Shown here one piece after another: positions 128 through 52,064 of a stretch of DNA of 53,788 bases. Both the position numbers and the translations under genes were made by a program. The stretch comes from a virus (lineage: Duplodnaviria > Caudoviricetes). The notes below the pieces were generated by a model. That model saw only the letters and a program-made list of their open reading frames with translations, ran no database searches and was not told where the DNA came from. The stretch covers positions 1 to 53,788 of the IMG/VR virus record IMGVR_UViG_3300031953_000017. The stretch is one strand, 5' to 3'. Every line of letters starts with the position of its first letter. The stretch's first letter is position 1.

Positions 128-187
128 TGAATTGTCAATAACCTCCCGAGATTCCGCAGCCAGGTCGGCAATGAATGTGTCAGGCAT
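1..187 (-). CDS. 5' part of a hypothetical protein spanning the circular join (MPDTFIADLAAESREVIDNSVGWKIDL..., continues to 53549)
   Basis: ATG at 187 overlaps the end of the MazG-like gene; frame is continuous with ORF 53549..53788. Confidence 0.75.
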   Translation of the reverse strand, partial: MPDTFIADLAAESREVIDNSVGWKIDLYPGSSLDLVRRLTLALESVTAPTEDERIEQARADA

Positions 188-806
188 TGTCGGCCTCCTC
201 TGCTTTTTGGATTGCTTCACCCTCCGCTATGCGCTGGCGACGATCAATCGCCTCAGCCCATTGCGTAGCCACTGCGGCAGTTTGGATCAGCTCAGTGCGC
301 AACTTCTCGGGGTCGCTCTCGGCCAACGCCTCAAAGACCTCTTCGAGCAGTATGTCGGCCCATGAGACCGTCCCCTCTTTTGCGGCCTTGTCTGTTGCCG
401 CTTTCGCCAGAAGTGACAGCCCAATCGCCCAGCTCCGCGATCCGCTAGTTGAGGAAATCGGGCCATTGTGGACAATGCGATTCAGGGGCGTGGATGTCCT
501 GCCAGTGCCGTCCGGGTGATTCTGCTGACCCCATTTCACATCCTGCCGAGCGCGTTCGTCAACTACGTCACCGACGGCTTTCCCGCCATGGGGCGAAACG
601 TGGAACTGGAACAATATCGACTTGGCGATGTTGTTTGCCCCGATAGACGATACGCCCCCTTCGTCGCGCCGATTCGCATGCCAAATCGCGGAACCAAGAC
701 TTTCTACCTGTTTTTTGTATAGATCCTGCTTGCTCGGCAGCTCGGGTGTCTTCGGTTCAAGCGTTCCATCGTTCGATGCGTGGCTGTCATTGTGGTTCAT
801 GTTCAT
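180..806 (-). CDS. MazG-like nucleotide pyrophosphohydrolase
   Basis: ERARQDVKWG...ILLEEVFEA...RTELIQTAAVA matches the all-alpha NTP-PPase EExxE...ExxQ pattern of phage MazG-like proteins. Confidence 0.75.
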   Translation of the reverse strand: MNMNHNDSHASNDGTLEPKTPELPSKQDLYKKQVESLGSAIWHANRRDEGGVSSIGANNIAKSILFQFHVSPHGGKAVGDVVDERARQDVKWGQQNHPDGTGRTSTPLNRIVHNGPISSTSGSRSWAIGLSLLAKAATDKAAKEGTVSWADILLEEVFEALAESDPEKLRTELIQTAAVATQWAEAIDRRQRIAEGEAIQKAEEADNA

Positions 807-2380
807 TTCGCTTCTCCTTTGGTCAGCGCCTTGCGCAAGCTCCTGTTGAGCTCGAGCCGGCGGGCTAGTTGTGAATCAATAATGTCTTCGTCGGTGGAAC
901 CTTCGGCAATAATCTCGTACTGGATCACCCCTTCGGTTCTCTTTTGCCCGCGGCGATCCAGCCGGCCGAGCAACTGCGTTTCGCTGGCGAGATCTCGGGA
1001 CTTGTTCAGCGACACCAACACTCCCGATGCGGCCTGCAGCCCGTCAATGCCGGTGCCGATAGCTTCGGTCACGCCAACAATCACGTCATATTTTCCGGCC
1101 TCAAAATCCTCAAGAGCCTGGTCGCGTGCCGCATCTGTCGCCGAGCTCGACCACTCGAACGCGCGAACCCCTTGAGCTTTCAGGCGGTTGACGGCCAGCT
1201 CGGCAAACTTTTTGGAGTTGGTGGCAGCCACGATAGGCTCGCCCACTTTCCCCATAATCCTGATCATCGCATCCAGCTTGGGGCTGTCGGCATCCGGCGC
1301 AAACACGACATCCCACAGTGGCATGCCACGCTCGTCGACCGCTTGCTGGGTCAGCCCGTCGTCGGCAATGATGTAATCCTTGCCCAGCTCCCACTCAGTT
1401 GACCCTTTCTTGGGTTTCCATGGGCGCGGGATGATCGACGGCATCGCGAGCGTCATCTGTGACAGGCGCAACGTGCGAACGACCGGCATCTTCACGACCA
1501 ACGCCTTGCGCTTGCGCTCGACCAGGGGCAACGCCTTCCACTCTTCGGTGGCGATGTCTAGGTATGCGAGATAGTCGCGTTGCAGCTGTGTGATCGCCTT
1601 TTTCTGGCCGGCCGTCAGGTCGACGGTTTCTCGAATCACAATCGGCTCGGGCAGGTGCGACAGGAAACCTTCGGGGTGAAACTCGCAGCATTCGGCGCGC
1701 TTGAAATGCTGAATCCAGCACGGCATCAGGCTGGCGAAGAGACCGGGCTCCAGCTCTCCGACAACCTTGCGCTTGCCGGGGGCGTGGTGGTCATACTCAG
1801 TTCGGCAGTAGGTGTCGATCCAGCGGTTCGCTGAGATGTCAGCGATGTCGCCGTGGCCGTCATGCTCCGGGTGCATGAAACGCGCAATTGTCCACGCGTT
1901 CTCAAACAGGTTCCGGTACATGGTTCCCGACATCGGGATCCGATGGCCGGTTGAGCGTGAAAACTTCATCAGCGCTTTGCCGCCAGACTTGTCGCGATTC
2001 CCCAGAAGGTGCGCCTCGTCGACGATGGTGAGATCTGGGCGAATGTGGTGTGGCTTCCAGCGCGTGAACGTCTGCGGGGTCATCAGGTAGTAACCCTCTT
2101 CACCCCACTCGAGATCCGACATTGCAGCCTTGCCCGGTTCGGTGCTGTCGATTCTTTGGATGCGTGCCCCTTCGTCGACTTCGCCAATAGTTCTACGCCA
2201 CACCTTTTTGTGCGTTCCTTGCGGGGCGATGATCAGCTTCGTCGGCAACCCGCTACGTCGCGCGGCCTCGGCTGCGATGACAGTTTTGCCGGCGCCAGTC
2301 TCGGCGACTACCGCGCCCGTCATGTTGTTGGCGAGAAGTGCCCGAATGTCAGCCTCTTGAAAATCGTATGGCTTGAGCAA
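803..2380 (-). CDS. Superfamily 2 DNA helicase
   Basis: Walker A AETGAGKT, DEAH box, motif III SGT, motif VI QLLGRLDRRGQ. Confidence 0.9.
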   Translation of the reverse strand: MLKPYDFQEADIRALLANNMTGAVVAETGAGKTVIAAEAARRSGLPTKLIIAPQGTHKKVWRRTIGEVDEGARIQRIDSTEPGKAAMSDLEWGEEGYYLMTPQTFTRWKPHHIRPDLTIVDEAHLLGNRDKSGGKALMKFSRSTGHRIPMSGTMYRNLFENAWTIARFMHPEHDGHGDIADISANRWIDTYCRTEYDHHAPGKRKVVGELEPGLFASLMPCWIQHFKRAECCEFHPEGFLSHLPEPIVIRETVDLTAGQKKAITQLQRDYLAYLDIATEEWKALPLVERKRKALVVKMPVVRTLRLSQMTLAMPSIIPRPWKPKKGSTEWELGKDYIIADDGLTQQAVDERGMPLWDVVFAPDADSPKLDAMIRIMGKVGEPIVAATNSKKFAELAVNRLKAQGVRAFEWSSSATDAARDQALEDFEAGKYDVIVGVTEAIGTGIDGLQAASGVLVSLNKSRDLASETQLLGRLDRRGQKRTEGVIQYEIIAEGSTDEDIIDSQLARRLELNRSLRKALTKGEAK

Positions 2381-2409
2381 TGCGCCTCCAATCTGTTGAG
2401 TGTCTTTTG

Positions 2410-2519
2410 TGGGACTGGCGGGATTTGAACCCGCGTACTCCGATACAGTGCGTGGCCTCTCCCGAGGACTAATCCGCTGTCGTCTGCCGTCCGGCGCTTG
2501 GCCTCTAAGCTACAGTCCC
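2410..2519 (-). ncRNA. tRNA-like RNA with expanded anticodon arm (110 nt)
   Basis: Minus strand: acceptor GGGACTG/CAGTCCC plus A, TA linker, D arm GCTT-AGAGGCC-AAGC, variable loop AGTAC, T arm GCGGG-TTCAAAT-CCCGC; no standard 7-nt anticodon loop. Confidence 0.8.
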
Positions 2520-2523
2520 AAGT

Positions 2524-2560
2524 GGCTGCCATCCAGAGCCGGGGAGGATAGATGGCAGCC
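2524..2560 (-). other. 10-bp stem-loop immediately upstream of the tRNA-like RNA
   Basis: GGCTGCCATC (2524-2533) / GATGGCAGCC (2551-2560) perfect inverted repeat, no U-tract. Confidence 0.6.
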
Positions 2561-2567
2561 GGTCTAG

Positions 2568-3719
2568 TTATGCTCGGGCGAGCTTACGCGCCACAAACAT
2601 GAGCGCCCCACCAGCGGGGAGCAATGCGAGCCACCAGGCTCCGATGGTTCCGCTGTCGCCAGTGTAGGGCAGCTTCTGAACCTGAGCCACAGGGGCAGCC
2701 GGAGTCACCGGCTTCTCTGGGGTGGCTGGAGTTTCTGGATCCGGGTCAGGCGTGTTATTCACGCAGATTGTTGGATCCTCGAACTCGTTGAGCCCTCCCG
2801 GTGCTGTGCCCTCTTCGCATTCGACGACAGGGGGCGTGTAGCATCCGAGTTCGATCGCTTCGGCACGCTCAAGAGTGCGGCTGCTGCTAGCTTCTGTCGA
2901 AACTGCTCCGTCGATCGTCGTCCACGTTCGGGTCGTGTACTGGTTGGTTGCCGAACAAACAGACTCTTCGTGATTCTCAATCACTCGACAGTCCAGTGTT
3001 GCCGGATCTGTCAGCTGAATCGTTGCCAACCCCAGATCGTGATTGATGTTGGTCACATTGTCGAACCACACAATCGGCAAGGTGATCGACTGGCCATAGG
3101 TCGGCGTGATGCCGAACTTTGTCAGAGCGTCCTCGACGGACAAGCCGGCGTTTTGTGCAGCCAAGATGTCTTCAGCCTTGATGCGCAAATCTCCAAGAAT
3201 GAAGCGAACACCGTCGGACGGGCCAGAGAATGCGAACGTGTTGAACGGGACATCACACGATGGCGGGGTCACGGTCAGGCTGGGAGCTGCGGGGATCTCG
3301 GGCTGGTAAGGGATCTCGCAGTTTTCGACAGCCACCTTGGCGCTCTTGGTGTAGGCCAGGTTCCCCAGCTTGTGACTGGCGAACTGCACCCCCACATTCA
3401 AGCGGTATTCACCCGCTTCGACATTCTGCGTCCACGTCTGCGTTACCGTGTCGCCGCGAACGGGCAATCCGATAAGGCCACTGTCGACAACGGCAACTCC
3501 GTTGATCTCCACAACTTCGATCGTTGCGTCGATGTTCTTGTAGTTGGCTCCCAGATCTCCAGTCACGTTCCATGTGATCGAAGCCTGCCCGGTCGAGGTG
3601 TCGCATTTTGCGATTCCTGAAACCGTTGGATGCGTTGCGCTCGCGGGAATCGCCGCAATAGCGGTGAGCCCTCCGGCGAGCATAAGGGTCACTAGGCCCT
3701 TGGCGATGATGTTCTTCAC
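2568..3719 (-). CDS. Secreted LPXTG cell-wall-anchored protein (sortase substrate)
   Basis: GTG start overlapping the upstream stop; signal peptide ending PASA; Pro/Thr-rich linker; LPYTG, hydrophobic helix, basic tail RKLARA. Confidence 0.85.
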   Translation of the reverse strand: MKNIIAKGLVTLMLAGGLTAIAAIPASATHPTVSGIAKCDTSTGQASITWNVTGDLGANYKNIDATIEVVEINGVAVVDSGLIGLPVRGDTVTQTWTQNVEAGEYRLNVGVQFASHKLGNLAYTKSAKVAVENCEIPYQPEIPAAPSLTVTPPSCDVPFNTFAFSGPSDGVRFILGDLRIKAEDILAAQNAGLSVEDALTKFGITPTYGQSITLPIVWFDNVTNINHDLGLATIQLTDPATLDCRVIENHEESVCSATNQYTTRTWTTIDGAVSTEASSSRTLERAEAIELGCYTPPVVECEEGTAPGGLNEFEDPTICVNNTPDPDPETPATPEKPVTPAAPVAQVQKLPYTGDSGTIGAWWLALLPAGGALMFVARKLARA

Positions 3720-4405
3720 TTGTTCTCCTGTTCGTTTGATTTTTCGATTTCTTGCTTGACCATCTCGGTGAGATGGTCTCCCCAAAGATTGACAACCTCT
3801 TCGAGTGTATTGCTGCTGAAATAGACCTCGCCCAGGCCGTCGCCATCGGGGTTCCGGCACGAGCATGTCGCCTCCCAGAACTCCTGATCCTTGCGAGAAA
3901 ACTCGTTCTTGCCGACACCCTCAATCTCGTGAATCTTGGACTGTCTTTCGCTGGCGATCTTGGTGGCCGACTTGAACGAGTGAACAAAGCACTCACGGCT
4001 AACGTGGTAAGAGAATGCCCCAGGGGTGTATTGGCAGGAGCAACCTTTATCCTTCTGTTCACTCGCCCAGGCTTCGGCGCGAACGCGGTTGCGCTCGGCA
4101 TAGTCTTCGTCCTCCGCGAGCATGTGGCCATGCAGGTCAGCCTCGGCCGATCCGTCCATCACGCTCCAGCTGGATTTCCAGCCGCACGAGCAACGGGCGA
4201 CAGTTCCGCGATGGCCACGCACGTCTTCGTCGGTGCAGGTGCCTTCGTGCTTCACCCACGCCTCTTCATTGTGCGCGGGGCAGTCGGTACACTGCGAGCA
4301 TGGCGGGGAGATGTGGCAGGAGCAATTGTGGAGCTCCTGATTCCCCGGCTTGCAGTCGGGGTGAGTCTCGGCCAGATGTTCGTATTCTTCGGTGAGCTTA
4401 GCCAT
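3716..4405 (-). CDS. Cys/His-rich hypothetical protein (several putative Zn-binding modules)
   Basis: CSCHISPPCSQC, CSCGW...HGH and CSC...DH motifs; stop/start overlaps with both neighbours. Confidence 0.7.
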   Translation of the reverse strand: MAKLTEEYEHLAETHPDCKPGNQELHNCSCHISPPCSQCTDCPAHNEEAWVKHEGTCTDEDVRGHRGTVARCSCGWKSSWSVMDGSAEADLHGHMLAEDEDYAERNRVRAEAWASEQKDKGCSCQYTPGAFSYHVSRECFVHSFKSATKIASERQSKIHEIEGVGKNEFSRKDQEFWEATCSCRNPDGDGLGEVYFSSNTLEEVVNLWGDHLTEMVKQEIEKSNEQENK

Positions 4406-4701
4406 CAGGAGACCCCCAGCGCTTTCGCGATCTCGGGGCGAAACTCTCCAGTGACAGGTAACCCCAGCGCGCGCCAAGCGGCGAACTCCATGGGGTGAAT
4501 ATTTTGGTCAGGGTCAATCAGGCTCATGGTTCCGATCGTGATCAGGTTCGCAATTCTCTGCTGCTCGGCGAGCGCCAATGTTGCGTAGACCTGAGCGGCG
4601 GCCAGCATGTCTGCTTTGCTATCAAACCAGTACGATCCGTCTGCCTTGTTGACCGAGCCCATCTCTGCGAGCTCTTCTGCTTTTTCCTTAAAATCCTTCA
4701 C
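4405..4701 (-). CDS. hypothetical protein
   Basis: 98-aa ORF translationally coupled to neighbours. Confidence 0.7.
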   Translation of the reverse strand: MKDFKEKAEELAEMGSVNKADGSYWFDSKADMLAAAQVYATLALAEQQRIANLITIGTMSLIDPDQNIHPMEFAAWRALGLPVTGEFRPEIAKALGVS

Positions 4702-4868
4702 GCTGACTCAACTCCAATCTCTATTGGTGGCGCCGGTGCTACGTCTTGTTGGCCTAACCCGCTTGCAATAAACAGGAGCGCCAGAATAGCGCCGATGGTT
4801 AGTGCTGCCAGCCCAATCATGATGTCGGCAACTTTGCCGATCGTTGGCTGCTTGAACCTGTGGATCAC
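4698..4868 (-). CDS. small membrane protein (56 aa, below ORF-track cutoff)
   Basis: GTG start; MIHRFKQPTIGKVADIMIGLAALTIGAILALLFIASGLG...; GTGA overlaps at both ends. Confidence 0.65.
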   Translation of the reverse strand: MIHRFKQPTIGKVADIMIGLAALTIGAILALLFIASGLGQQDVAPAPPIEIGVESA

Positions 4869-5107
4869 GAGTGATCCTCCAGCCGGTGCATCGCCTCGGC
4901 GCGCTCGACAGCCTGCCCGTAGGTCTCGCTGGAGCGTTCAGCGCCATAGGTGATCTCGCGCTTGTTTTTCAGTAGCATGATGCGAGTGGTCGAATGTTCT
5001 CGATCTCCGGGCATGCTGCGGGAGATCCGCACGACGACGCTGCCGTCAGGCATGATGTCGCCAACCTGCATGTTTCGGTACTGGGTTTCCGTGGTGATCT
5101 TAGCCAT
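4865..5107 (-). CDS. hypothetical protein
   Basis: Strong RBS AGGAGG upstream of ATG 5107 (MAKITTETQY). Confidence 0.7.
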   Translation of the reverse strand: MAKITTETQYRNMQVGDIMPDGSVVVRISRSMPGDREHSTTRIMLLKNKREITYGAERSSETYGQAVERAEAMHRLEDHS

Positions 5108-5175
5108 GTCTGGCCTCCTAAATCCTTGTGGTGTGTGTGTACGAATATACACTATTTATAGCCGGCGATCTACGT

Positions 5176-5541
5176 TTAGATCGAACCTTCTTCATGCATT
5201 TCTGAAATCTCGGACTTCAGCCGGCGGAGGCGTGCCTCCTCGTTCAGGGGGATTTCGCTACCTGTCAGCATCTGCTCGGAAACCTTGTCGGTGATCCGAA
5301 CCGGCTTGCCGTCGATATGTTCTAGCGTGTAAGAAATCTCGAGAATGGTGTCCTCACCCCGCGCCCACGAGATCTGAGCTCGAAGGCCGATCGCGCCCTC
5401 TTTGGTGGCGAACCTCTCCATGTGGGCGATCACTTCGGAGCGTTGCTCTTCGGTTGTTGTTGCTCGGCCCAAGGTCGTCCCGCTGACACTTCTGGTCGGC
5501 CCCAACGTTGCCTGTGGCTCGATGATCCCCATGTCAATCAC
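5176..5541 (-). CDS. hypothetical protein
   Basis: ORF in leftward operon; start is GTG 5541 or ATG 5532. Confidence 0.6.
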   Translation of the reverse strand: MIDMGIIEPQATLGPTRSVSGTTLGRATTTEEQRSEVIAHMERFATKEGAIGLRAQISWARGEDTILEISYTLEHIDGKPVRITDKVSEQMLTGSEIPLNEEARLRRLKSEISEMHEEGSI

Positions 5542-5660
5542 AGCCAACCCACAATGTGCAAAAACACTGTGATGATGCCAGCATAGATGGCCGCGCACTT
5601 CAGGATTATCACGCCCAACTGAATAGGTGTCGCCGGTTCGATCTCAGGCTTGTTGCTCAC
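5538..5660 (-). CDS. small membrane protein (40 aa)
   Basis: MSNKPEIEPATPIQLGVIILKCAAIYAGIITVFLHIVGWL fills the gap with GTGA overlaps. Confidence 0.6.
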   Translation of the reverse strand: MSNKPEIEPATPIQLGVIILKCAAIYAGIITVFLHIVGWL

Positions 5661-6256
5661 GACTGCGCCTCAATCCACTCGTTCAGCATGGACACCAACG
5701 ATTTCGGCGCCAGCTCGGAGACCTCTTCAACTTCGTAGGTCAACCATCCCGGCAGCTCGCCCTCGGGAGTCATCTCGGTCATCGGATCCTCGGTGATGCT
5801 GAACAGTCGGCTGCCGTCGTCGCTGACATCGAAGTTGACTGTACCCTCAAGAATTTTGGGGTAATCCTCGGCCGTGACCGTTGTCGGGAAACCGACAAAA
5901 CGCACGTTGATTTCAGTGTGTTCGTCGTTACCCCAGGCGAAAGCGTTGAACGCTTCAGGGTTGTTGATCGACGCAACATGCATGTCTTCGGTGCGCTTCA
6001 GCCAGCGGTAAACAGTTCCGCGATCGAGTACACCCAGCCCGTCGTTGGCGATGACGGCAACAGGCACGCCCAACTGTCGAGCGCGTCGAACCGCAATCGC
6101 AAGCTCAAGCTCTACGGCATCCAACTCTTCACGCAATGCCGCGCGGACACGCTTCTCAATGGACTCTTTGCCGTTCTTGTAGTTGTCGCGAGCTTCGGTG
6201 ATGTTGGTGACAGAAGCTTTCTGGATGCTGTTCATGTTGGCTCGGCGGGTACTCAC
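5657..6256 (-). CDS. hypothetical protein, possible N-terminal helix-turn-helix
   Basis: ARQLGVPVAVIA...LDRGTVYRWL resembles an HTH. Confidence 0.6.
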   Translation of the reverse strand: MSTRRANMNSIQKASVTNITEARDNYKNGKESIEKRVRAALREELDAVELELAIAVRRARQLGVPVAVIANDGLGVLDRGTVYRWLKRTEDMHVASINNPEAFNAFAWGNDEHTEINVRFVGFPTTVTAEDYPKILEGTVNFDVSDDGSRLFSITEDPMTEMTPEGELPGWLTYEVEEVSELAPKSLVSMLNEWIEAQS

Positions 6257-6888
6257 TTGTTGGCCTCAATCTGGATTGCTTCGGTTGCTGCGCGGCGTAG
6301 CTCGGTGTAAAGCCATGTCGCATAGCCTTCAGGGATTTCGATGTCGAACTCTTTGAGGAACGCGATGTGTGTCTGCGCTTGAGGCTGGATGCGACCCTCA
6401 AAGGTGAGGCAGTTGACCGTGTTCAGGTCGGCTGTGATGATTTTGAGCGATGCAGCAAACAGTTGGTTGTTCGAGTTGTCATAGTGGAATTCCTGCATAG
6501 CCTCCTCGTGGGTCGGCCCCACAATTTTCCACTCAAACTTCATAGGAAAATTGCTCAGACGATACTCGTCGTCATCGTCACTCAAACCTACAGACCAGGA
6601 CTCCGCCAACAAACCCGTTTCGGGGGCGCGTGTGACGATGACAAAAATGTTGTTTTCTTCGCTGCCATTACCAACCTCGCGAGTGATGCACTGACCGCTT
6701 CCACCTTCCTCTTTGTGCGCCTGTCGAAACGATCGTCTCCAGTTGGCCACCAAAGAGTGAGCTTGTGCGTAGTCAAGGATCGCATCGTCATGCGTGAAAT
6801 CAGAATCATTCCCGCGGGTGATGTAGTCCTCTTCCACCTCAAATTCGATGGTGTCGTCGTTGGGCAGGGTAATCGAAATCTCGGTCAT
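6253..6888 (-). CDS. acidic hypothetical protein
   Basis: 211-aa D/E-rich ORF, coupled. Confidence 0.7.
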   Translation of the reverse strand: MTEISITLPNDDTIEFEVEEDYITRGNDSDFTHDDAILDYAQAHSLVANWRRSFRQAHKEEGGSGQCITREVGNGSEENNIFVIVTRAPETGLLAESWSVGLSDDDDEYRLSNFPMKFEWKIVGPTHEEAMQEFHYDNSNNQLFAASLKIITADLNTVNCLTFEGRIQPQAQTHIAFLKEFDIEIPEGYATWLYTELRRAATEAIQIEANK

Positions 6889-7427
6889 TATTTTGACTCC
6901 TTCTCTGTGATGAAAATGTCTAAAGTTTCGGCAAGGATCTTGTCTGCTGAGTTTTCGCTACCGTGGGCTACAAACTCCAGAAGGTGCAACATGTCCACCA
7001 TGGCAACAATCACTGAGCTCTCCAGGTCTCCCGGCTCTTTTTCGGGAAACGTTACACCCACGTCTTGCGCAGCACGTCGCGCCGATCGCTGGCGTACAGC
7101 CGGCAGAGCCTCGTATTCTTCGTCATCGCTAGCCGGCATGACATTCTCAACATGCTCCAGCTGTGAGGATGACGCGTCATCGTTGCTGTCGCCCAGGAAC
7201 ACGGCCCCGCAGCTGCACAGTACAAAAAATGTTTCGGCGTGGGCGTTGTAACGCACGGGCGCATCCAAGTGCAATTCTGCCAACTCGGATACCGGCTCCA
7301 GGATTCGGAAATCTGTACCTTCGTTTGCTGCTGACAGCATCACCAGCTCGTCAATTGCCAGCGTCATCGTAAACGGTATCTGAACCGTCTTGTAGTCGTT
7401 CCCAATTTTCTGCTGTACCTGTGGCAT
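6888..7427 (-). CDS. hypothetical protein
   Basis: RBS AGGGG before ATG 7427 (MPQVQQK); CSCG motif. Confidence 0.65.
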   Translation of the reverse strand: MPQVQQKIGNDYKTVQIPFTMTLAIDELVMLSAANEGTDFRILEPVSELAELHLDAPVRYNAHAETFFVLCSCGAVFLGDSNDDASSSQLEHVENVMPASDDEEYEALPAVRQRSARRAAQDVGVTFPEKEPGDLESSVIVAMVDMLHLLEFVAHGSENSADKILAETLDIFITEKESK

Positions 7428-7444
7428 TGTGTTTCCCCTAATCT

Positions 7445-7759
7445 CTAGTAGCTGGCCAGCATGCGCTTGGCCCACTTGGGCATGGGTGTTGTTTTGCGCA
7501 CAAACCTGAACACGGGCACAGGCCGGTAGGTGCTTTTGTAATTCTTGTCATGGCGCGCATCCATCCACGCATCCAATTCTGCGCTGGTGCTGCCGTAGTT
7601 GACGGCCAGCGCATCATGCGGGGGCGTGTGACCGGCTGGCGTGCCGACCGTTTTAGGCTCAGGCATTTTGCGAGCTTTCAGCTCTGGCTTGGTGATGCTG
7701 AACAACTCCATGATGTCGGTGAGTTGTTCCTCGGTGACTGTGATGCTGTAGCGAGTCAT
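7445..7759 (-). CDS. hypothetical protein
   Basis: 104-aa ORF, ATGA overlap. Confidence 0.65.
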   Translation of the reverse strand: MTRYSITVTEEQLTDIMELFSITKPELKARKMPEPKTVGTPAGHTPPHDALAVNYGSTSAELDAWMDARHDKNYKSTYRPVPVFRFVRKTTPMPKWAKRMLASY

Positions 7760-8472
7760 TTTTTTACCCCAAAGATGTTGGCGAAACGGGTGAGTGTGTG
7801 GCGAACGCGCATTACGTCCGCTTGTGTGTTGACGCAGAGAAAACCTGTGTTGCGAGCTTCAGCGCCATTGCAGCTTTTCAGGCGGTCGGCCCATAGGCGC
7901 GCGATTTTCACGGTCGAATAAGTGTTGGCGCAATTGCGGCGCAGTTCGCGAAGAATCTGCTGCTCACTATTCATGTTGTTGGGCACGCCGTTAGAGCGTG
8001 AGATCCGCGCATAGCGGCCTAGCGTGTGGACGGCAAAATACACTTGCGCTTGTGTGCGGAAAACACCAAAACCGCGTGCTGTGGCAACCTCGGGTTTCAT
8101 GGCTGCCAACTGATCAGCCCAATCCTGGGCAACAATCAAGCGCACACTCTTGTCACTGTCGCGGATATCCTCCAGCAACGCGAGCGCGGGCGTTTTGTCA
8201 GCATCACGTTTTACCGCCCAGGCGTGAATTCTCATGTTTTCGATCATGGCATTATGGTTGCCAACCTCGTCGAGGATCCCGTTGGCGAAATTCTCCCAAT
8301 CCTCCACATCGCCGTCGAGTGTGTAACGCAGCTGATTGCCGGCATCCTCCAGCATCAGCACCCACCTGTCACCTTCTGGCGTGCCCTCGCTCAGGTTGTC
8401 GTCGACAGTGTGCGCGGGTACGGTCTCAGCAACAACGTTTCCGGCATGTGATCCGTTTGTGGTGTAACCCAT
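7756..8472 (-). CDS. hypothetical protein
   Basis: 238-aa ORF in leftward operon. Confidence 0.7.
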   Translation of the reverse strand: MGYTTNGSHAGNVVAETVPAHTVDDNLSEGTPEGDRWVLMLEDAGNQLRYTLDGDVEDWENFANGILDEVGNHNAMIENMRIHAWAVKRDADKTPALALLEDIRDSDKSVRLIVAQDWADQLAAMKPEVATARGFGVFRTQAQVYFAVHTLGRYARISRSNGVPNNMNSEQQILRELRRNCANTYSTVKIARLWADRLKSCNGAEARNTGFLCVNTQADVMRVRHTLTRFANIFGVKK

Positions 8473-8474
8473 GA

Positions 8475-8720
8475 TTAGTTGCTCGCTTTCTGCGCGTAGG
8501 TGATTAGGTCATTTTCGATGGTTACCATCAGCGGAACGTTTTTCATGTCCGCGTTATCAATCCCATAAGCCACAGACGCGTTAGGCCACGTCCTCTTCGA
8601 CATGACCTGCCCGCTGGGCAGCTCCAGCGAAACCAGGTATGCAGGGTTTCCTGTACCGGGGGAGTTGTCCAGTTTTTGGGTGGCCACAATTTTGGCCTCA
8701 ACAATAGTTTCGATCGCCAC
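8475..8720 (-). CDS. small beta-rich hypothetical protein (paralogue of 8723..9028)
   Basis: NSPGTGNPAYLV and NASVAYGIDN motifs. Confidence 0.7.
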   Translation of the reverse strand: MAIETIVEAKIVATQKLDNSPGTGNPAYLVSLELPSGQVMSKRTWPNASVAYGIDNADMKNVPLMVTIENDLITYAQKASN

Positions 8721-8722
8721 AG

Positions 8723-9028
8723 TTACGCCCCCACTTTCTCAATTTTGGTTATCTTGCCGCCGGTGATGGAAACCACAACATCTGCACCCTTGTCGCCGCC
8801 ATCGTTGATGTAATTTTCGATGTCATACCCCACAGCGCTATCACCACCAACATAAAAGCTGGCTGTGGTCAGGTGTGAGCCGTTACGGTATGCGACACCC
8901 ACAAGCCATTGCGGGTTACCGCTGGGGGTGTTGTGCTGGCGTACAGCGCCCCGAATCTTGCCGGTGATGGTTTTGCCGTTGTCGTCTTCTGTGGGGTATT
9001 CGCGAATGTCGTTCATGTTGGTTGCCAT
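8723..9028 (-). CDS. small beta-rich hypothetical protein (paralogue of 8475..8720)
   Basis: NTPSGNPQWLV and DSAVGYDIEN motifs. Confidence 0.7.
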   Translation of the reverse strand: MATNMNDIREYPTEDDNGKTITGKIRGAVRQHNTPSGNPQWLVGVAYRNGSHLTTASFYVGGDSAVGYDIENYINDGGDKGADVVVSITGGKITKIEKVGA

Positions 9029-9030
9029 GG

Positions 9031-9534
9031 TCAGTTTCCAATCTCTGTGGTGGTGAAATTCTTTGCATAGTTGCTGTAGCTCATAAACACCAATGTCCAG
9101 CCTTCCAGCAACGGCTCGCATTCGTGATGCGTGTCCGGGTGTTCATCCCCATATTCGCATTCGTAGGTTCCGGGCACGAACGCCCACAGCCCAGGCGTGG
9201 CAATCACCTTATCTAGCATCGCCTCCGACATGTGTTCGCTGTCATGCATCCACACGCTGTCGTTGTTCACCCCCGCACACTGTCCCGAAAACCCGGTCAT
9301 AGGCAACTGCCAGAATCCTTCACCGTTCGTGTTGGTGTGGGCGATCGGGTTCGCAGCTGTGGCGTGCATGTCAGGATCAACCGTTTCGGGCGCACCCACC
9401 AACCATGTCCACCCGGTGAGTACGGTTCCCCGTTCCGAGGTGACGGCAAACACGCTCCCAAACTCTTGTGTGCGGATCGCCTCATGGCGTGCCGCGCGGG
9501 TATCTTCAGCGGCGACTGTGGTGACATCTGACAT
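9031..9534 (-). CDS. hypothetical protein
   Basis: RBS GGGAG before ATG; first gene after the AT-rich region. Confidence 0.7.
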   Translation of the reverse strand: MSDVTTVAAEDTRAARHEAIRTQEFGSVFAVTSERGTVLTGWTWLVGAPETVDPDMHATAANPIAHTNTNGEGFWQLPMTGFSGQCAGVNNDSVWMHDSEHMSEAMLDKVIATPGLWAFVPGTYECEYGDEHPDTHHECEPLLEGWTLVFMSYSNYAKNFTTTEIGN

Positions 9535-9954
9535 GTGGATAACTCCCGTTTTCTTGTGGTGTGTGGCGGTAACCGGATCCGGTAGATCTCAGCTTCTAAT
9601 GTGTATATCACGATACCACAGTTTGTGGTTTTGTGTATATACAGTTTATACGTTGTTTTGATCGTGTCGTATTTGCTACAGGTTGTGCATTACGTTTTCG
9701 CATGGTTTGGTGGTGAAATGCGACATGTATATTGCGATGCAGCAGTTGAGGGTGTTTGTGTCACTGTTAAGTAGGGTTATAAACGTTGATGACTTTAACT
9801 CCTTCTTACAATGAACACACTACAAACTGTATTACTGTATATACGTTGTCTATGTATATTCACATATACGTTTGTGACAGAGAGATTTGAAGACGTGTCC
9901 TCAAATTCGCGTTGTATAGGTTTACAACACTTCACGGGGGTTGCCTGTGGATAA
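9534..9954. other. AT-rich non-coding region; candidate replication origin and early promoter region
   Basis: No credible ORF; visibly AT-rich; TGTGGATAA (DnaA box) at 9534-9542 and 9946-9954; TATACGTT at 9647, 9840, 9865. Confidence 0.5.
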
Positions 9955-10071
9955 CTATGGGCAGCCGGCCGATTATGGCGCGATCGGTCTAAGCCCAGGC
10001 GGGGCGCTGTGAGCTCAATTTTCGGGGAGCTAATCCAGGCTGGAGACCCTGAGATCTCCAGTCCGGGCGGA

Positions 10072-10371
10072 CTACCCTAAGCCGGGGATATTGTCTGTGA
10101 GTGCGAGACCTACGATGCCTAGCGCAGATGACGCTATGAGCGCTAGTGACCATAGGAGCTTATGGAGTCGAGCGCGGCCAGCTTTCCGAATGATGGCGAT
10201 ACGTTGCGCGCGGCCTGTGGCGGACTCCATGGCGACATAGCTAGCGGGTGGCATGTACGGGAGCGCGGCCACGTTAGCGCGTGCCTGACTGTCTGCCCGT
10301 TCGTGGCGTGTGATGTCCGCATAGTCGTTGTCGGCGATTAGCGGGGCGTGTGTGGAGTGTCGGCCGCTCAC
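10072..10371 (-). CDS. hypothetical membrane protein
   Basis: GTG start overlapping upstream stop; C-terminal hydrophobic helix LLWSLALIASSALGIVGLAL. Confidence 0.6.
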   Translation of the reverse strand: MSGRHSTHAPLIADNDYADITRHERADSQARANVAALPYMPPASYVAMESATGRAQRIAIIRKAGRARLHKLLWSLALIASSALGIVGLALTDNIPGLG

Positions 10372-10811
10372 AGTGTCACCTTCAGCCAGTTGTTTACGAC
10401 ATCCTGAACAATGTTTGCCGCGTCGGTATTGCTCCAGTCGATGCCGCTGGAGTCGTCGCACAGTCCGCCGTACATGTTGGCATCAACGTAATCGTGTAGT
10501 TCCGAGAATGACGCACAGCTGCGCGGAACGATGCCCCCGCTTATGTCTGCGCATATCTGGGAGACACTGAGCGCTATGGCGTGGCGAATATCCCGCTCTG
10601 TGGGCGCGCGGCCTAAGCCGAGATCCTCCAGTGTGGGCACGCGCTCGCCGCAACATGTACGGGCGTAGGCGTACGGGGTGACATCACCGTTGTTTTCGAC
10701 TACGCGCCACTGAACCGCGCGCATGCCATGACCGTGGCGTTGTGAGTGTCCGACAGCTAGTGAGCGGTTGAACGGGGTGTCGGCGGGGGTAATTGTCTCG
10801 ACAGTAGGCAT
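10368..10811 (-). CDS. hypothetical protein
   Basis: 147-aa ORF, TAATG overlap; SFSELHDYVDAN motif. Confidence 0.7.
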   Translation of the reverse strand: MPTVETITPADTPFNRSLAVGHSQRHGHGMRAVQWRVVENNGDVTPYAYARTCCGERVPTLEDLGLGRAPTERDIRHAIALSVSQICADISGGIVPRSCASFSELHDYVDANMYGGLCDDSSGIDWSNTDAANIVQDVVNNWLKVTL

Positions 10812-11455
10812 TATTCGCTCCAGCTCCCCACGATGACAGAATCGTAATCAGGTTCGCCGCTCCAGTCGTGACCCCAGCGAATTAGGACACCTGAGAAATA
10901 GGTGTCAGGCTGTGCGCCATCCCACTGGAGGAGCGGTGAGCCACTGTCTACGGGGTGCACGTCGCCATAGGTTGATTCACAGCGCGGGGTAATCCGCGTG
11001 AACTCTTGAGCGTCATAAGTCCATGCGCGGTAACGGAAAAACCGGGGCGTGTGCGATTCGTAGGTGTCGGCGCGCATGTAGTCGAATTGTTCACGCTCTA
11101 ACTCTGTGAGATCCGCAAACGCGATTAGTTCGCGTTGGTGACCGTTAGTCGTGATGGTTAGCGCGGGGCGCACAGTCTCCCATGTCATGAAATCGAACCG
11201 CTTACCGGCCAGAGTTGCCCCGCATGATTCGCACGGGGTAGCAGAAAACTCTGTCATGCCGTACTCAGTGTCGTCGTCGTCAACGCCGAAGTTGGGCGAT
11301 GGCTGGAGCTGTGGAGTGTTGTCTGCCCAGTTCGCGCCGCTGAACGGTGCCCAGTTGGGTAATTCTTCCGTGGGGCGCTCCCCATTGACTGAGAGGAACA
11401 TGCAATCCTCGCAGACATCGACATTGCCGGATTCGCGAATAGTTGGGTTAGACAT
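10811..11455 (-). CDS. hypothetical protein with CxxC pairs
   Basis: RBS GGAG before ATG 11455; CEDC and CESC motifs. Confidence 0.7.
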   Translation of the reverse strand: MSNPTIRESGNVDVCEDCMFLSVNGERPTEELPNWAPFSGANWADNTPQLQPSPNFGVDDDDTEYGMTEFSATPCESCGATLAGKRFDFMTWETVRPALTITTNGHQRELIAFADLTELEREQFDYMRADTYESHTPRFFRYRAWTYDAQEFTRITPRCESTYGDVHPVDSGSPLLQWDGAQPDTYFSGVLIRWGHDWSGEPDYDSVIVGSWSE

Positions 11456-11540
11456 TTTGTACTCCAGTGTTGTTAGTGGTGGGGCAGATAGTTGCCATAA
11501 GCGCAACGGGGGTTTAGTACCGTTACGCCTAGTCAGCTAG

Positions 11541-11993
11541 CTATTCCGAGATGTCAGCAAGGATGGACAGAAACGCGTCACGGTGCTCGTCAAACGATGC
11601 GCCCTCGCTGGTCAGTTTGTCGTATTCGCGCATCAGCTGATCAGCGTCTTGATCCTCACGCATGGCGAACACTCGGCGCGCGGCCTCACGGGGTGTCGCT
11701 CGGCATGTCTCCAGTTCGTAGGCATCAACGCCCCCGCTGTACTCCTCACTCACGTACGGCTCAACATGGTAGGCGCGGCCATCCAATGTGCGTGATGTCT
11801 CCACTAGGCGGGACTCAGCTATGCCCGTAGCCTTCGCTATCGCATCAGTGTGCTGGTCACGCGCCCCATGATCGAACGGCATGCGCTTGCTGCGCCCATT
11901 GCAGGTAACGAGTACGCGCGTACCCCCGTTAGGGTGCGTTACCAGTCGAGCGCGTACCTGAGTAGCGCCTTCGCAGTTGTCATGTGTCAGCAT
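11541..11993 (-). CDS. hypothetical protein
   Basis: 150-aa ORF, TAATG overlap. Confidence 0.65.
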   Translation of the reverse strand: MLTHDNCEGATQVRARLVTHPNGGTRVLVTCNGRSKRMPFDHGARDQHTDAIAKATGIAESRLVETSRTLDGRAYHVEPYVSEEYSGGVDAYELETCRATPREAARRVFAMREDQDADQLMREYDKLTSEGASFDEHRDAFLSILADISE

Positions 11994-12154
11994 TAGTTTG
12001 CGCTCATCTCTTCTGAGAGTTGTTCCGCATTGAACGGGCGGGGGGCGTATGCGCCACCCTTGAGGGCGCGAGCTTCACGCCGTGCGAGCGTGTCGCGTTT
12101 GGCTTGTGCCGTGCGCGTGTTGTCTGTGGTGCGTGTCATGCGAGCGTTAGACAT
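11993..12154 (-). CDS. small basic protein (53 aa)
   Basis: MSNARMTRTTDNTRTAQAKRDTLARREARALKGG...; purine-rich leader; coupled to the next gene. Confidence 0.6.
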   Translation of the reverse strand: MSNARMTRTTDNTRTAQAKRDTLARREARALKGGAYAPRPFNAEQLSEEMSAN

Positions 12155-12180
12155 GGTGACTCTCTTCTGTGGTGGGTGGC

Positions 12181-12405
12181 TTAGAAATTGCAGGGGAACA
12201 TTGTGCCCGTGCGCGTATCGACAACGACACTCAGGATGGGGGAGGACACACGCACGCCGTCATGACGCACGGTGCCGCGCGCGACTAGGTCGCCATAGGC
12301 TGTGCGCTCCCATGAGGTGGCGACGGTCACGCGACGGGCGACACGCGCGCGGGGGGCGCGCGCGGACACGCGGGGGGCAAGGTGGGCAGTAGCTGAATTG
12401 GTCAT
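12181..12405 (-). CDS. small basic hypothetical protein, apparently leaderless
   Basis: -10-like TAGACT (12417-12412) lies 6 nt before the ATG. Confidence 0.55.
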   Translation of the reverse strand: MTNSATAHLAPRVSARAPRARVARRVTVATSWERTAYGDLVARGTVRHDGVRVSSPILSVVVDTRTGTMFPCNF

Positions 12406-12785
12406 GACATCAGTCTACACATATTCGTACTCAATGGGGGATAATCTCTAACATTAATTACCCCCACTTTGGGGGACACGCATCAGGCAATGGATAGGGC
12501 GCATGGGGGGGCAGGCTCGCGAGCGCGCTAGGTGAGGATCACTCATGCCTGGGCTGCCGGCTGAAAGAATCGACATTATCTCAGCATTTCCGGCCGGCCT
12601 CCCTATCTAGTACCCACAGATAATTTCCACACCAAAATGAATACCTCGCCAATCCCCTCCCCTTTCCAAAAAATTTTCCACAAAAATGAAGAGAACCTCG
12701 ACGAACCCGATACACTGTCAGGGATTCGGACGCGGAGCACTCCCGGTTCGCAGATCTCCACCATTCATTTATTCCAAGGAGAATC
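12406..12785. promoter_or_regulatory. divergent control region between the arms; candidate packaging/terminus region
   Basis: Transcription diverges here; G/C runs, inverted repeat TGGGGG...CCCCCA, A/T tracts, TACACT -10-like box at 12711-12716. Confidence 0.45.
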
Positions 12786-13034
12786 ATGCAAGTCAAAGCG
12801 AAGTTCTACGTCAACAAGATCACCAAGAGCGCCAACTTCGGGCACACGTCCGTCGAGTTGCTACCAGTCACCCGAAAGACCGACGACAACACGGACTGGG
12901 CGCAGTTCACCCCGAGCGGCAAGTTGGACATGAACGTATCCACCAGCACGGGCGCTGCCCAGTGGTTTGAGGACATGCTCGGCAAGGATGTTTCGATCAC
13001 TTTCGAGGAAGCGGTTGACGACGGCGACGAGTAG
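12786..13034 (+). CDS. hypothetical protein
   Basis: RBS AAGGAG; 82 aa with WAQFTPSGKLDM motif. Confidence 0.75.
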   Translation: MQVKAKFYVNKITKSANFGHTSVELLPVTRKTDDNTDWAQFTPSGKLDMNVSTSTGAAQWFEDMLGKDVSITFEEAVDDGDE

Positions 13035-13117
13035 CCCTATGCTCGAATGATTCAGAGATCCCACCAACGAATATCAGACTTCAAAAACCTGTAGCCGTTG
13101 AATCTCTAAACTGGCCG

Positions 13118-13258
13118 ATGGGGTGGGAGCTAAGCCAGAGCCGCCGTCATTGCCCCGATCCCGTGGGTGTATTGAAATGCCGGAGCAGCAAATAACGAAA
13201 ACGGATCGCGAAAGACCTCAGCAATAGCCCGTGAAATTCGGAAGCCTGGGGTCTTTCG
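13118..13258 (+). ncRNA. candidate structured small RNA 1 (or leaderless 25-codon mRNA)
   Basis: TAAACT -10-like box at 13107-13112; stem CGATCC/GGATCG; 13-bp terminal stem 13209-13221/13246-13258. Confidence 0.4.
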
Positions 13259-13261
13259 TCA

Positions 13262-13290
13262 TTGACAGGACGACCCCCTGGCCGTAGAGT
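13262..13290 (+). promoter_or_regulatory. near-consensus sigma-A/sigma-70 promoter
   Basis: TTGACA-17 nt-TAGAGT. Confidence 0.8.
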
Positions 13291-13296
13291 CATTTC

Positions 13297-13504
13297 AGCG
13301 CCTCGGCAGGGTTTTGGCTTTCACCCCACGCCCGCTGCGAGATCTCGGAGTCGCCGAGGAATGAGATCTCGCACCGCCCCATCCCACATCTTCTCGAAGG
13401 TCATGTAACGGGCGGACAACTAAATATCGCGAACACAACGCAAACACACGGTCTCCCCCGTACTCGAGTAACCGCAAGGTGAAAGGTGCGGGGGTTTCTG
13501 TTTT
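13297..13504 (+). ncRNA. candidate structured small RNA 2 (about 205 nt)
   Basis: Own promoter; 11-bp perfect hairpin 13336-13346/13363-13373; terminal stem 13455-13463/13486-13494 followed by TTTCTGTTTT; no long ORF. Confidence 0.6.
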
Positions 13505-13511
13505 CCGATAT

Positions 13512-13557
13512 ATGCCCGAATTGGTATTTGACGCGAGGGCTGCGCCCTGTAGATAAT
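13512..13557 (+). promoter_or_regulatory. palindromic operator plus promoter for leaderless gene 13563
   Basis: ATGCC-N6-GGTAT then TTGACG-18 nt-GATAAT, ATG 5 nt downstream. Confidence 0.6.
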
Positions 13558-13562
13558 CAGGC

Positions 13563-13799
13563 ATGGACAAAAACACCACAGAAGAAGAAGAAGATACCAT
13601 CCCCGAGATCACCGAGCCGAAACCACTGAGCCGTGGCTATGTCATGGATTTGATTCAGTTGGACGAACGTTCGGCAACGTTCCAGTGGGCATCAGTCAAC
13701 ATGGGCTATACCGCAACGCTGGCGAAGCTGTCGTTGGACGAATGGAAAGAGCTCGGCAGGCCGTCATCGCTGAACGTGACGATGGAGGCCCGGTCGTGA
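13563..13799 (+). CDS. hypothetical protein
   Basis: 78-aa ORF after promoter. Confidence 0.7.
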   Translation: MDKNTTEEEEDTIPEITEPKPLSRGYVMDLIQLDERSATFQWASVNMGYTATLAKLSLDEWKELGRPSSLNVTMEARS

Positions 13800-14107
13800 G
13801 CGGCCAGCGCCGGCTACTGGTTGGCGGCAGCCGTGATGGCGACTACATGCTGATCGAACGCAACGTTGACCGCATTGAGCTGCCAGTACGGGGCCAGGGT
13901 GGCGTGCCCGGTTTTTGCGATAATGCCGCCATAAAGACCCAGACCTATATTCGGCGCCGGCTGATGCTTGGCGCGCGCGACCAGGAGGAAGGCGTGAAGT
14001 TGGTGCTGGAAGTGTTTATGCGCCCCGACCTACCCCACGACGACATGAGCATGCTGCGCGCTGTGCTGCGCCCCAACACTATTAGCGAGATTGTGAGTAA
14101 ACGATGA
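13796..14107 (+). CDS. hypothetical protein
   Basis: GGAGG RBS, GTGA overlap. Confidence 0.65.
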   Translation: MSGQRRLLVGGSRDGDYMLIERNVDRIELPVRGQGGVPGFCDNAAIKTQTYIRRRLMLGARDQEEGVKLVLEVFMRPDLPHDDMSMLRAVLRPNTISEIVSKR

Positions 14108-14220
14108 GCGGCCACGAAGATGACAGCAACAGCCGGGAAGCACACGAGGCGTCCGGTCATCGCATGGTTGCTGATGATGGGGGAATGTTTGAATGCTCCT
14201 GCGGCAAGTGGGTTATCTGA
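14104..14220 (+). CDS. 38-aa protein with H...CSCG motif
   Basis: MSGHEDDSNSREAHEASGHRMVADDGGMFECSCGKWVI; ATGA overlap. Confidence 0.5.
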   Translation: MSGHEDDSNSREAHEASGHRMVADDGGMFECSCGKWVI

Positions 14221-14249
14221 TGCCGGATACAGAGACTGGAGAAAAAGCA

Positions 14250-14873
14250 ATGAACGAGCCGAAGAAGTACACGATCGAAGACGACCAAGCTCGGGCGCCG
14301 CAGCAGGGAACCCCAACGGCCAACGAAACCATCTTTGCCCTGCCTGACAACATGCAGCCTCGTCGACCCTATTCGGGCATTGCTGACTTCGCCTCCATGT
14401 CGGTCAGCCCGCCTGGTGGAGTGGTTGTGCGATCGGCGCGGAAAGCCGGCAAGACGACCATCGCCCGCAAAGCCAACGGCAAAGTGCTGCGAGCTCAAGT
14501 TTTGGCAGGATGCCCTTCACCGGCTGGCGTGCCTAAAATGCCGCTCGGTCATGCGCCCACAATGCCGAAGCCGCTGCTTGCGCCGAAGCCGAGCGCTGCC
14601 TCGGAGGTTGAGGTGATTTTCGAGTGGGCTCATGAGGTGGGCATCATCGACGAGATGGATGACTGGCAGAAGTTTTTATTCGAGAACCAGTTGGAAGCGT
14701 CCGGCTACGTTCGCTCGCGAAATACTCAGGCGGAAAGGATCCTGCGAGAGGTTGACGCCGAGCACGAGCGGCGCAGCAAGCCGTTCCTGTGCCGGCTGAA
14801 CATCCACACGAGCGTCTGCAACAAGTACTCGCTGAGCGCGTTCTGCAACAAGTGTGGAAAGGTGAACCCGTGA
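14250..14873 (+). CDS. hypothetical protein with C-terminal Cys/His motif
   Basis: GGAG RBS; C..H..C..CNKCG tail. Confidence 0.65.
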   Translation: MNEPKKYTIEDDQARAPQQGTPTANETIFALPDNMQPRRPYSGIADFASMSVSPPGGVVVRSARKAGKTTIARKANGKVLRAQVLAGCPSPAGVPKMPLGHAPTMPKPLLAPKPSAASEVEVIFEWAHEVGIIDEMDDWQKFLFENQLEASGYVRSRNTQAERILREVDAEHERRSKPFLCRLNIHTSVCNKYSLSAFCNKCGKVNP

Positions 14874-49785: not shown

Positions 49786-49786
49786 T

Positions 49787-51995: not shown

Positions 51996-52064
51996 GTGGT
52001 GAGTCTCCGCTCTGCTAAGTGATGCGCTGTGGTGATGTCTCTAAGGTAGCACGTATTCGTACCG

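Follow-up and report, generated by a model that had tools for sequence, protein, structure and literature searches.

The subject of this report is an intergenic region in a complete virus record of 53,788 bp (IMGVR_UViG_3300031953_000017; referred to here, at its full length, as the window), which carries direct terminal repeats and has a GC content of about 58%. The region, positions 13035–13562, is a spacer of 528 bp between two genes on the + strand (12786–13034 and 13563–13799). It lies about 400 bp inside the rightward gene block of this actinophage-like virus, and the longest + strand open reading frames (ORFs) that touch it comprise 48, 47, 34 and 25 codons. An earlier note, made from the sequence, had described a spacer without a long + strand ORF, divided into two units (unit 1 and unit 2), each with a −10 box and a long terminal stem, and with the promoter TTGACA-17-TAGAGT ahead of unit 2. 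All of these features were recovered in place, the promoter of unit 2 at 13262–13290 (P2 in the list below), and two further promoter-like sites (P1 and P3) were added to them. The reading that we favour, with a confidence somewhat better than even, is that of a promoter-dense non-coding locus in which unit 2 would be a stand-alone RNA gene of about 209 nt and unit 1 an add-on that pairs with it in cis on read-through RNA. The features on which this reading draws are listed here; the relative is the single related phage contig that we found.

12786–13034, + strand: upstream gene (82 amino acids), which opens the rightward block; ribosome-binding site AAGGAG
13015–13043, + strand: P1, promoter-like (TTGACG-17-TATGCT), 9 of 12 positions in the consensus scan; its −35 lies inside the last codons of the upstream gene
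13044–13261, + strand: unit 1 proper, a segment of about 218 bp that this phage has and the relative lacks; flanked by P1 and P2
13107–13112 and 13118–13195, + strand: −10 box TAAACT and 25-codon ORF, from sequence and translation
13119–13146, + strand: 5′ strand of the predicted long-range helix, pairing with 13304–13328
13209–13258, + strand: T1, a hairpin of 13–14 bp that closes unit 1, followed by TCATTGACAGG and abutting the −35 of P2
13262–13290, + strand: P2 (TTGACA-17-TAGAGT), 10 of 12 consensus positions; start of unit 2 predicted near 13297
13297–13329, + strand: variable 5′ tail of unit 2, with the 3′ strand of the long-range helix at 13304–13328
13336–13373, + strand: helix A, whose arms hold GAGATCTC twice; core of nine pairs invariant
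13374–13415, + strand: helix B (CCGCCC/GGGCGG), apical CTTCTCGAAGG invariant
13416–13454, + strand: A/C-rich linker, mostly unpaired, 10 nt shorter in the relative
13455–13505, + strand: T2, predicted intrinsic terminator with a 10-bp stem around a small hairpin, a GCAA loop and a U-rich tail
13528–13557, + strand: P3 (TTGACG-18-GATAAT), 10 of 12 consensus positions
13563–13799, + strand: downstream gene (78 amino acids), whose ATG lies 5 nt past the −10 of P3; no Shine-Dalgarno sequence

The promoters are consensus matches, and their start sites are predictions. A scan of the whole genome returned 13 sigma-70-like sites (8 + 3 + 2), no excess over shuffled sequences. Three of the 13, all on the + strand, lie within 13015–13557, and these include two of the three sites with a 10/12 match. 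The orthologue of P3 in the relative (L002 4505–4533) is flanked by 18 nt that are identical between the phages, and the palindrome GGGC-N3-GCCC (13536–13548) inside the P3 spacer, which is likewise kept in the relative, could be an operator.

The unit 2 core and its counterpart in a related phage

All searches converged on a single relative, a contig of 22,458 bp (L002, L003, L004 and G001). It was the only sequence retrieved when the 82-residue upstream protein was compared with viral, metagenome and genome contigs, and the only one that matched two conserved DNA patterns among viral contigs; the 78-residue downstream protein, used as a query, found no relatives. A pattern match in a genome contig (L005) falls within a coding region of a genome that is unrelated, and it was set aside as chance. 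A blastn search with 12700–13900 against 50,697 phage records gave no match. When the spacer DNA was compared with 401 actinobacterial genomes, matches of 20–36 nt with E-values of 7e-4 to 1e-2 were seen in 19 of the 401 (G305 and G374 among them), and these, too, we read as chance.

The upstream gene of the relative ends within its single promoter, the orthologue of P2 (TTGACG-17-TAGAGT, L002 4230–4258, overlapping the stop codon there), and the counterpart of unit 2 follows directly. The 5′ tail of this counterpart is homologous to that of unit 2 and diverged, with about 14 extra bases and a local hairpin of its own. From 13330 on, the two phages share identical runs of 21, 10 and 11 nt over helix A and the tip of helix B, and T2 differs from its counterpart at few positions. 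Each of the two sequences, when folded by itself, yields the same succession of elements, namely helix A, then helix B, an unpaired linker rich in A and C, and finally a terminator that encloses a small hairpin; helix B is predicted in the single-sequence folds of both phages. The stem of T2 (13455–13464 with 13485–13494) is followed by TTTCTGTTTTC; a U-rich tail is also present in the relative, where the small loop reads GGAA instead of GCAA.

Several of the differences between the two phages preserve base pairs. The arms of helix B are CCACCA/TGGTGG in the relative, which amounts to two two-sided compensatory changes, and the stem of T2 differs at its base (C-G to G-C) and at its top (C-G to U-A), on both sides in either case. 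In an alignment of the two sequences (n = 2) that was hand-anchored on shared motifs, the consensus energy was −49.6 kcal/mol and the structure conservation index was 0.87; among its 38 pairs, 31 were unchanged, one was altered on one side and six on both sides, and none was broken. Column shuffles gave −20.7 ± 3.8 with 0 of 500 as low as the actual alignment, and at least six two-sided changes appeared in 6 of the 500. The consensus energy of the minus strand was only −36.5. An unedited MAFFT alignment contained five two-sided changes in 37 pairs, even though helix B was misaligned in it. Since neither unit 1 nor the complementary tail is present in the relative, which nevertheless keeps the rest with compensatory changes, we take the unit 2 core (13330–13505; two helices, a linker and an intrinsic terminator), and not the pair of units, to be the probable conserved and functional part of the locus.

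Judged by its sequence, the spacer is non-coding. No conserved ORF was found between P2 and T2, and the insertions and deletions that separate the two phages are not multiples of three. None of the four spacer ORFs scanned against Pfam matched; the 34- and 48-residue ORFs were among them. An ORF of 105 amino acids on the minus strand was rejected: its substitutions at the three codon positions (11, 17 and 13 of 47, 48 and 47 sites) have no third-position bias, and its frame differs from that of a 73-residue ORF of the relative across helices A and B. A minus-strand ORF of 48 amino acids had a single phmmer match, to a 988-residue tandem-repeat sequence (P0005) in ten stretches, which looks spurious. 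A + strand mini-ORF from the ATG at 13361 has 15 codons against 19 in the relative, with no similarity past the third residue. The units had not been recognised as a known family, and Rfam (release 15, 4227 models) agrees with this: at the gathering score it found only a tRNA (2410–2519) in the whole window, and at E ≤ 10 two chance-level matches within 12900–13700, both outside units 1 and 2.

Two side observations concern the sequence of unit 2. The tail can pair through positions 13318–13325 with the apical loop of T2 (13478–13485), and the relative could form six of these eight pairs; in the window, the helix with unit 1 lays claim to the same bases of the tail. A 12-mer in the 5′ arm and adjoining loop of helix B (13375–13386) is perfectly complementary to 33916–33927, the ribosome-binding region of a gene starting at 33931; the contig of the relative ends short of that gene. 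This match could be due to chance because about 1.4 such 12-mers are expected genome-wide, and the rest of the genome contains complementary 10–12-mers at roughly the frequency that chance would give.

Both arms of helix A are perfect 8-bp palindromes (the two copies of GAGATCTC, 24 bp apart); they and their flanks show 100% conservation, and the palindrome of the P3 spacer is conserved as well. Such elements would suit a control region that works at the level of DNA, with three promoters and operator-like palindromes, chance complementarity between the units and incidental folds. Two further points fit this explanation, namely that about 1–3% of the control sequences described below pair equally well and that the complementarity was picked as the best-looking feature in 54 kb. 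We nevertheless consider it very unlikely. Helix B and T2 change on both sides and yet keep their pairs, which operators would not need, and the G-U pairs as well as the fold energies favour an RNA of the + strand. GAGATCTC occurs at six sites in the genome (989, 10051, 13339, 13363, 40117 and 50409) against 1.1 expected, a number reached by 0 of 100 shuffles, and four of the six sites lie inside genes. Its 10-bp form, with one mismatch allowed, is barely enriched (eight sites against 3.8 expected; 5 of 100 shuffles reach eight), and AGATCT is present in 22 copies, mostly within genes. A reading of GAGATCTC as a DNA motif thus found weak support. The phage also encodes a cytosine-5 methylase (42186–43913).

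Unit 1 and its complementarity to unit 2

Unit 1 is absent throughout the 22-kb contig of the relative. Its GC content is 52%, compared with 58% for the genome, and the promoters on its two sides, P1 and P2, are partly similar, diverged copies; the −35 of P1 is orthologous to the −35 of the single promoter of the relative. We rejected the idea that the two units themselves are diverged duplicates, since no homology between unit 1 and unit 2 was detected, their similarity being at shuffle level (81 of 300 shuffles score as well).

DNA contigs assembled from four brine runs (X3, X4, X5 and X7) contain exactly two forms of the locus and no third variant. In X3 and X4, contigs extend over unit 1 and match it with 0 differences, one X3 contig spanning 13072–13470, and those of the other form join 13028 to 13320/13330, thereby skipping unit 1. 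Because contigs of several runs carry the form of the window without a single difference, unit 1 is not an assembly artefact. Both forms occur together in runs X4, X5 and X7, and in X5 the form lacking unit 1 has the greater depth (12400–14300). Unit 1 thus has the appearance of a lineage-specific cassette consisting of a promoter and a hairpin, and it may either have been gained by the phage of the window or have been lost in the relative through recombination between the promoter copies.

The −10 box TAAACT is of the TANNNT type and stands 5 nt ahead of the ATG at 13118; the sequence in front of it contains no good −35. The 25-codon ORF that opens at this ATG, and that had been proposed to be leaderless, is present as written. 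We found neither a Shine-Dalgarno sequence ahead of it nor a counterpart in the relative, nor any sign that either the −10 box or the ORF is used; the predicted peptide is basic and polar, and non-hydrophobic. The two arms of T1 (13209–13221 and 13246–13258; 13 nt each) are 92% complementary, and their single mismatch, T/G, would be a G-U pair on the + strand only. T1 is not followed by a U tract; TCATTGACAGG stands in its place.

The central claim of the earlier note was a complementarity of about 22 bp between the 5′ ends of the two units, and this part of it stands. Positions 13119–13146 and 13304–13328 can form 22 bp, made up of 20 Watson-Crick and two G-U pairs, and a repeat finder recovers part of this match. 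The helix is present in both the minimum-energy and the centroid folds of 13107–13504 and of 13050–13510. The alternative 10-nt pairing of 13117–13126 with 13374–13383, also proposed there, is 90% complementary. When 13107–13260 and 13297–13505 were folded together, the gain over the separate folds was −20.5 kcal/mol, which beats about 97–99% of the controls. Same-genome segments of equal length on the + strand gained −9.4 ± 3.6 (3 of 353 as good) in one set of controls and −10.1 ± 4.2 (5 of 353 as good) in another, and among dinucleotide shuffles 5 of 150 and 1 of 150 were as good. The local duplex had an energy of −39.5 against −26.2 ± 4.1 for the controls (5 of 1000 as good), in windows chosen after the fact. 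Full-length duplexes returned by RNAduplex for whole units were meaningless, and this output was dropped. The fold of the whole region had a z-score of −2.88 on the + strand and of −0.32 on the − strand; for 13050–13510 the z-score was −3.23 and 0 of 100 shuffles were equally stable. The additional pairs in this longer fold involve about 13270–13296, a segment upstream of the start of unit 2 at P2, and they can therefore form only in read-through RNA.

Collectively, the complementarity is real and uncommon, within about the top 1–3% of controls. This is suggestive and not decisive evidence for a functional pairing, because a reader of 54 kb of DNA reports the best-looking features.

A gain of −20.5 kcal/mol in this range would suit a switch made of two RNAs, that is, separate transcripts that pair in trans via their 5′ ends, with unit 2 covering the start of the leaderless ORF or with unit 1 acting as a sponge for unit 2. 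The TAAACT box 5 nt before the ATG at 13118, the very stable T1 directly ahead of P2, and the G-rich start of unit 1, which can pair with either of two C-rich stretches of unit 2, are in line with such an arrangement. We consider it improbable, however, since the sister phage has unit 2 without unit 1 or the complementary tail, so that the pair of units does not appear to be what selection kept. In addition, T1 has no U tract, no good −35 lies upstream of TAAACT, the peptide is basic and has neither a Shine-Dalgarno sequence nor a relative, and some of the predicted pairing uses RNA upstream of the P2 start that is available only through read-through. The notion of a conserved small RNA with its target, of a conserved RNA–RNA switch or of a toxin–antitoxin pair consequently finds no support in the comparison with the only relative, which lacks unit 1 and has a diverged tail, nor does the non-hydrophobic peptide agree with it. 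Compensatory changes in the helix between the units, a further point raised in the earlier note, could not be seen in this comparison, the sole relative being without unit 1 and without the complementary tail. As to the choice left in that note between a small RNA/target pair and one long RNA, the second option, a single molecule with long-range helices, is a better fit than a pair of RNAs that act in trans, because T1 has no U tract and the pairs with 13270–13296 exist only in read-through RNA.

Predicted transcripts and the possible role of the pairing

Unit 2 has its own predicted promoter (P2) and its own predicted intrinsic terminator (T2), with no conserved ORF between them. On the reading that we favour, that of a stand-alone RNA gene, host RNA polymerase would start at P2 near 13297 and stop at T2 near 13505, which would yield an RNA of about 209 nt that contains, in transcribed order, the variable 5′ tail, helix A, helix B, the A/C-rich linker and T2. 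The RNA itself would be the product, because the stretch from P2 to T2 holds no conserved ORF and because the gene that follows is served by a promoter of its own (P3) and is apparently leaderless. The RNA would presumably be made early in infection and may act in trans.

Mycobacterial RNA polymerase reportedly requires a U tract for efficient intrinsic termination; since T1 is without one, substantial read-through at T1 would be expected. Transcripts from P1, or from the promoter of the upstream gene, may hence continue through T1 and give rise to an isoform of about 460 nt, in which 13119–13146 would pair in cis with 13304–13328 and thereby sequester the tail of unit 2. The isoform from P2 would have the same core with its 5′ tail free. 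Helices A and B and T2 are the same in the predicted folds with and without unit 1, so no effect of the pairing on termination is predicted. The pairing between unit 1 and unit 2 is plausible rather than proven, and it would most likely occur in cis. The ends of these transcripts, the read-through at T1, an early role of the RNA in trans and whatever the pairing may do are inferences from the features described above.

A near-consensus promoter, a structured leader some 200 nt in length and a strong terminator precede a long same-strand block of genes that ends in terminase, structural and lysis genes. This layout would also be compatible with a cis-acting leader or attenuator, in which the structure and T2 set the flow of transcription into the downstream genes by regulated termination or antitermination and the RNA has no role of its own. 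The apical part of T2 is conserved beyond what a terminator stem would need, and the complementarity between the tail (13318–13325) and the T2 loop (13478–13485) might be a point of control. An attenuator nonetheless seems unlikely to us: the next gene has the conserved P3 right after T2 and is apparently leaderless, and read-through RNA would serve it poorly because a leaderless start codon would then be internal. A by-eye check found no alternative antiterminator fold conserved between the two phages, and none of the 36 scanned ORFs was recognised as coding for a protein like an antiterminator.

It is also conceivable, at a probability that we hold to be low, that the locus is a modular RNA gate, in which unit 2 needs a free 5′ tail and the unit 1 cassette sequesters this tail in cis or in trans. 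If this were true, the tail would either dock in the loop of T2 (13318–13325 with 13478–13485) or reach targets. A candidate target is 33916–27, for which the complementary 12-mer (13375–13386) sits in helix B and not in the tail. The timing of the gate would be set by the choice between P1 and P2 or by termination at T1, and the sister phage of the same brines would represent the ungated form.

Several points weigh against a structured RNA gene as the preferred account. The alignment used for the covariation analysis had its gaps set with knowledge of the helices and is biased towards structure, and with two sequences only, all covariation counts amount to a single comparison. Helix A loses its three outer pairs in the relative. 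Unit 2 on its own folds with a modest z-score of −1.57, as does unit 2 of the relative (−1.54), and unit 1 on its own (z = −0.78 or −1.20) is no better than its shuffles. P1 fits the consensus at only 9 of 12 positions, and the rules for promoters and terminators were taken from other bacteria. Finally, the invariant pair of self-palindromic GAGATCTC copies and the palindrome of P3 could be protein-binding DNA and not features of an RNA.

Genomic setting and comparable systems

The minus-strand genes of the window occupy 1–12405 and 39472–53788; their products include a helicase, a cytosine methylase, a DUF3987 protein, an exonuclease, an Erf-like annealing protein and a polymerase exonuclease subunit. 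The plus-strand genes run from 12786 to about 39475 and include those for the terminase, a 1400-residue ORF (28836–33038) and an endolysin. The large terminase is 37–39% identical to terminases of Arthrobacter and Clavibacter phages, and in 401 sampled genomes from one actinobacterial class it had distant matches only (31–34% identity, in 3 of the 401). No integrase- or repressor-like protein was found among the 36 ORFs scanned in PHROGs or Pfam, a subset of all ORFs, and the phage therefore looks lytic as far as this subset goes. Near-identical DNA is present in runs labelled brine metagenome from seven studies; the runs listed for this stretch include none of RNA, which has no bearing on whether it is expressed.

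Within the rightward block, no long spacer comes before this locus, which is separated by one small gene from the divergent control region (12406–12785). This control region shows block-wise conservation with L002 3560–4000. It contains two GATAAT elements on opposite strands within an inverted repeat (12572–12581/12618–12627) and a hairpin (12459–12478) common to both phages. The 61-nt leader (12725–12785) of the first rightward gene is near-identical between the phages and exceeds the conservation of the gene itself. That gene, the upstream neighbour of the spacer, is real, since its substitutions relative to the related phage (9, 11 and 34 by codon position) match the expectation for coding DNA. 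Its product is 73% identical to the counterpart in the relative, has four homologues only among 5.8 billion proteins, a search that showed P0003 and P0004 (63–64% identity) besides the counterpart in the relative, and shows a weak match to phrog_6978.

The downstream gene appears to be leaderless, to judge from the position of its ATG, and its N-terminus is conserved in the relative together with P3. Leaderless genes are common in actinobacteria. The relative has one ORF of 246 amino acids here (L002 4540–5280), whose start resembles the 78-residue gene of the window and whose later part resembles the 226-residue gene that comes next (window 13563–14873 for both). Since both genes resemble a single ORF of the relative, either the window has extra sequence between them or a gene has been split or fused. 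Elsewhere in the window, the tRNA gene at 2410–2519 (− strand) scores 49 bits in Rfam and was not called by ARAGORN; it has 47 nt in place of nine in the model in the region of the anticodon loop, and could be interrupted or bear an intron-like insert.

Pairing within a transcription unit is known from the immunity RNAs of P4 (CI), P1 and P7 (c4) and N15 (CA), in which a small RNA derived from the leader pairs within its own transcription unit; these are temperate elements, and the RNAs act on premature termination or on the translation of an antirepressor. The likeness to the present locus lies in the pairing inside its own transcription unit; here, however, there are no lysogeny genes among the 36 scanned ORFs, and the complementary partner is missing from the sister phage. 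In the late leader of lambda, a constitutive host-type promoter (PR′), a leader some 200 nt long (6S RNA) and a strong terminator (tR′), with antitermination by Q, stand ahead of genes leading into the packaging and structural block. The layout of promoter, leader and terminator is the same here, but P3 follows the terminator, the next gene is apparently leaderless, and no Q-like protein was recognised. We infer that a lambda-type dependence of the downstream genes on read-through of T2 probably does not apply, with P3 placed after T2 and no Shine-Dalgarno sequence present.

Morons are cassettes of promoter, cargo and terminator inserted between two genes of related phages. Unit 1 resembles them in being present or absent at the same junction in sister phages and in having promoter-like sites and an end hairpin (without a U tract). 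It differs in that it has no credible protein cargo (its ORFs comprise 25, 34 and 48 amino acids) and has a copy of the resident promoter on either side, the two having diverged. In type I toxin–antitoxin systems, the start region of a small ORF is complementary to a neighbouring small RNA; here, the peptide is basic and not membrane-like, the RNAs would be tandem and encoded on the same strand instead of antisense, and the pair is not conserved.

By its layout, the nearest analogue appears to be the Pleft RNA of Cluster A mycobacteriophages. There, the early promoter Pleft gives rise to an abundant non-coding RNA, with about 90% of the transcripts ending about 500 nt downstream (PMC5712189), in L5 ahead of the first downstream genes, and the RNAs are described as being without a known function (Dedrick et al., 2017; PMC5712189). 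The likeness to Pleft of L5 consists in a host-type promoter of an actinophage that is followed by a few hundred bases without a conserved ORF (PMC5712189). The RNA of L5 is about 500 nt long and is processed to smaller species, and the phages are temperate (PMC5712189), whereas the present locus has up to two tandem units. As already mentioned, blastn detected no similarity to 12700–13900 among the 50,697 phage records.

The locus is, as its sequence and the Rfam search indicate, a probable structured RNA absent from Rfam, and small RNA genes of phages are in themselves an already known kind. The non-coding RNAs of phages of high-GC Gram-positive hosts are barely charted, with the Pleft RNAs as their best-known case, and the locus described here offers a compact and well-delimited candidate for them, about 209 nt long from its predicted promoter to its predicted terminator, with helices that carry compensatory changes. 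Its two forms are a natural pair of variants, with and without the upstream pairing partner, which lets one compare the effect of a 5′ extension on a phage RNA.

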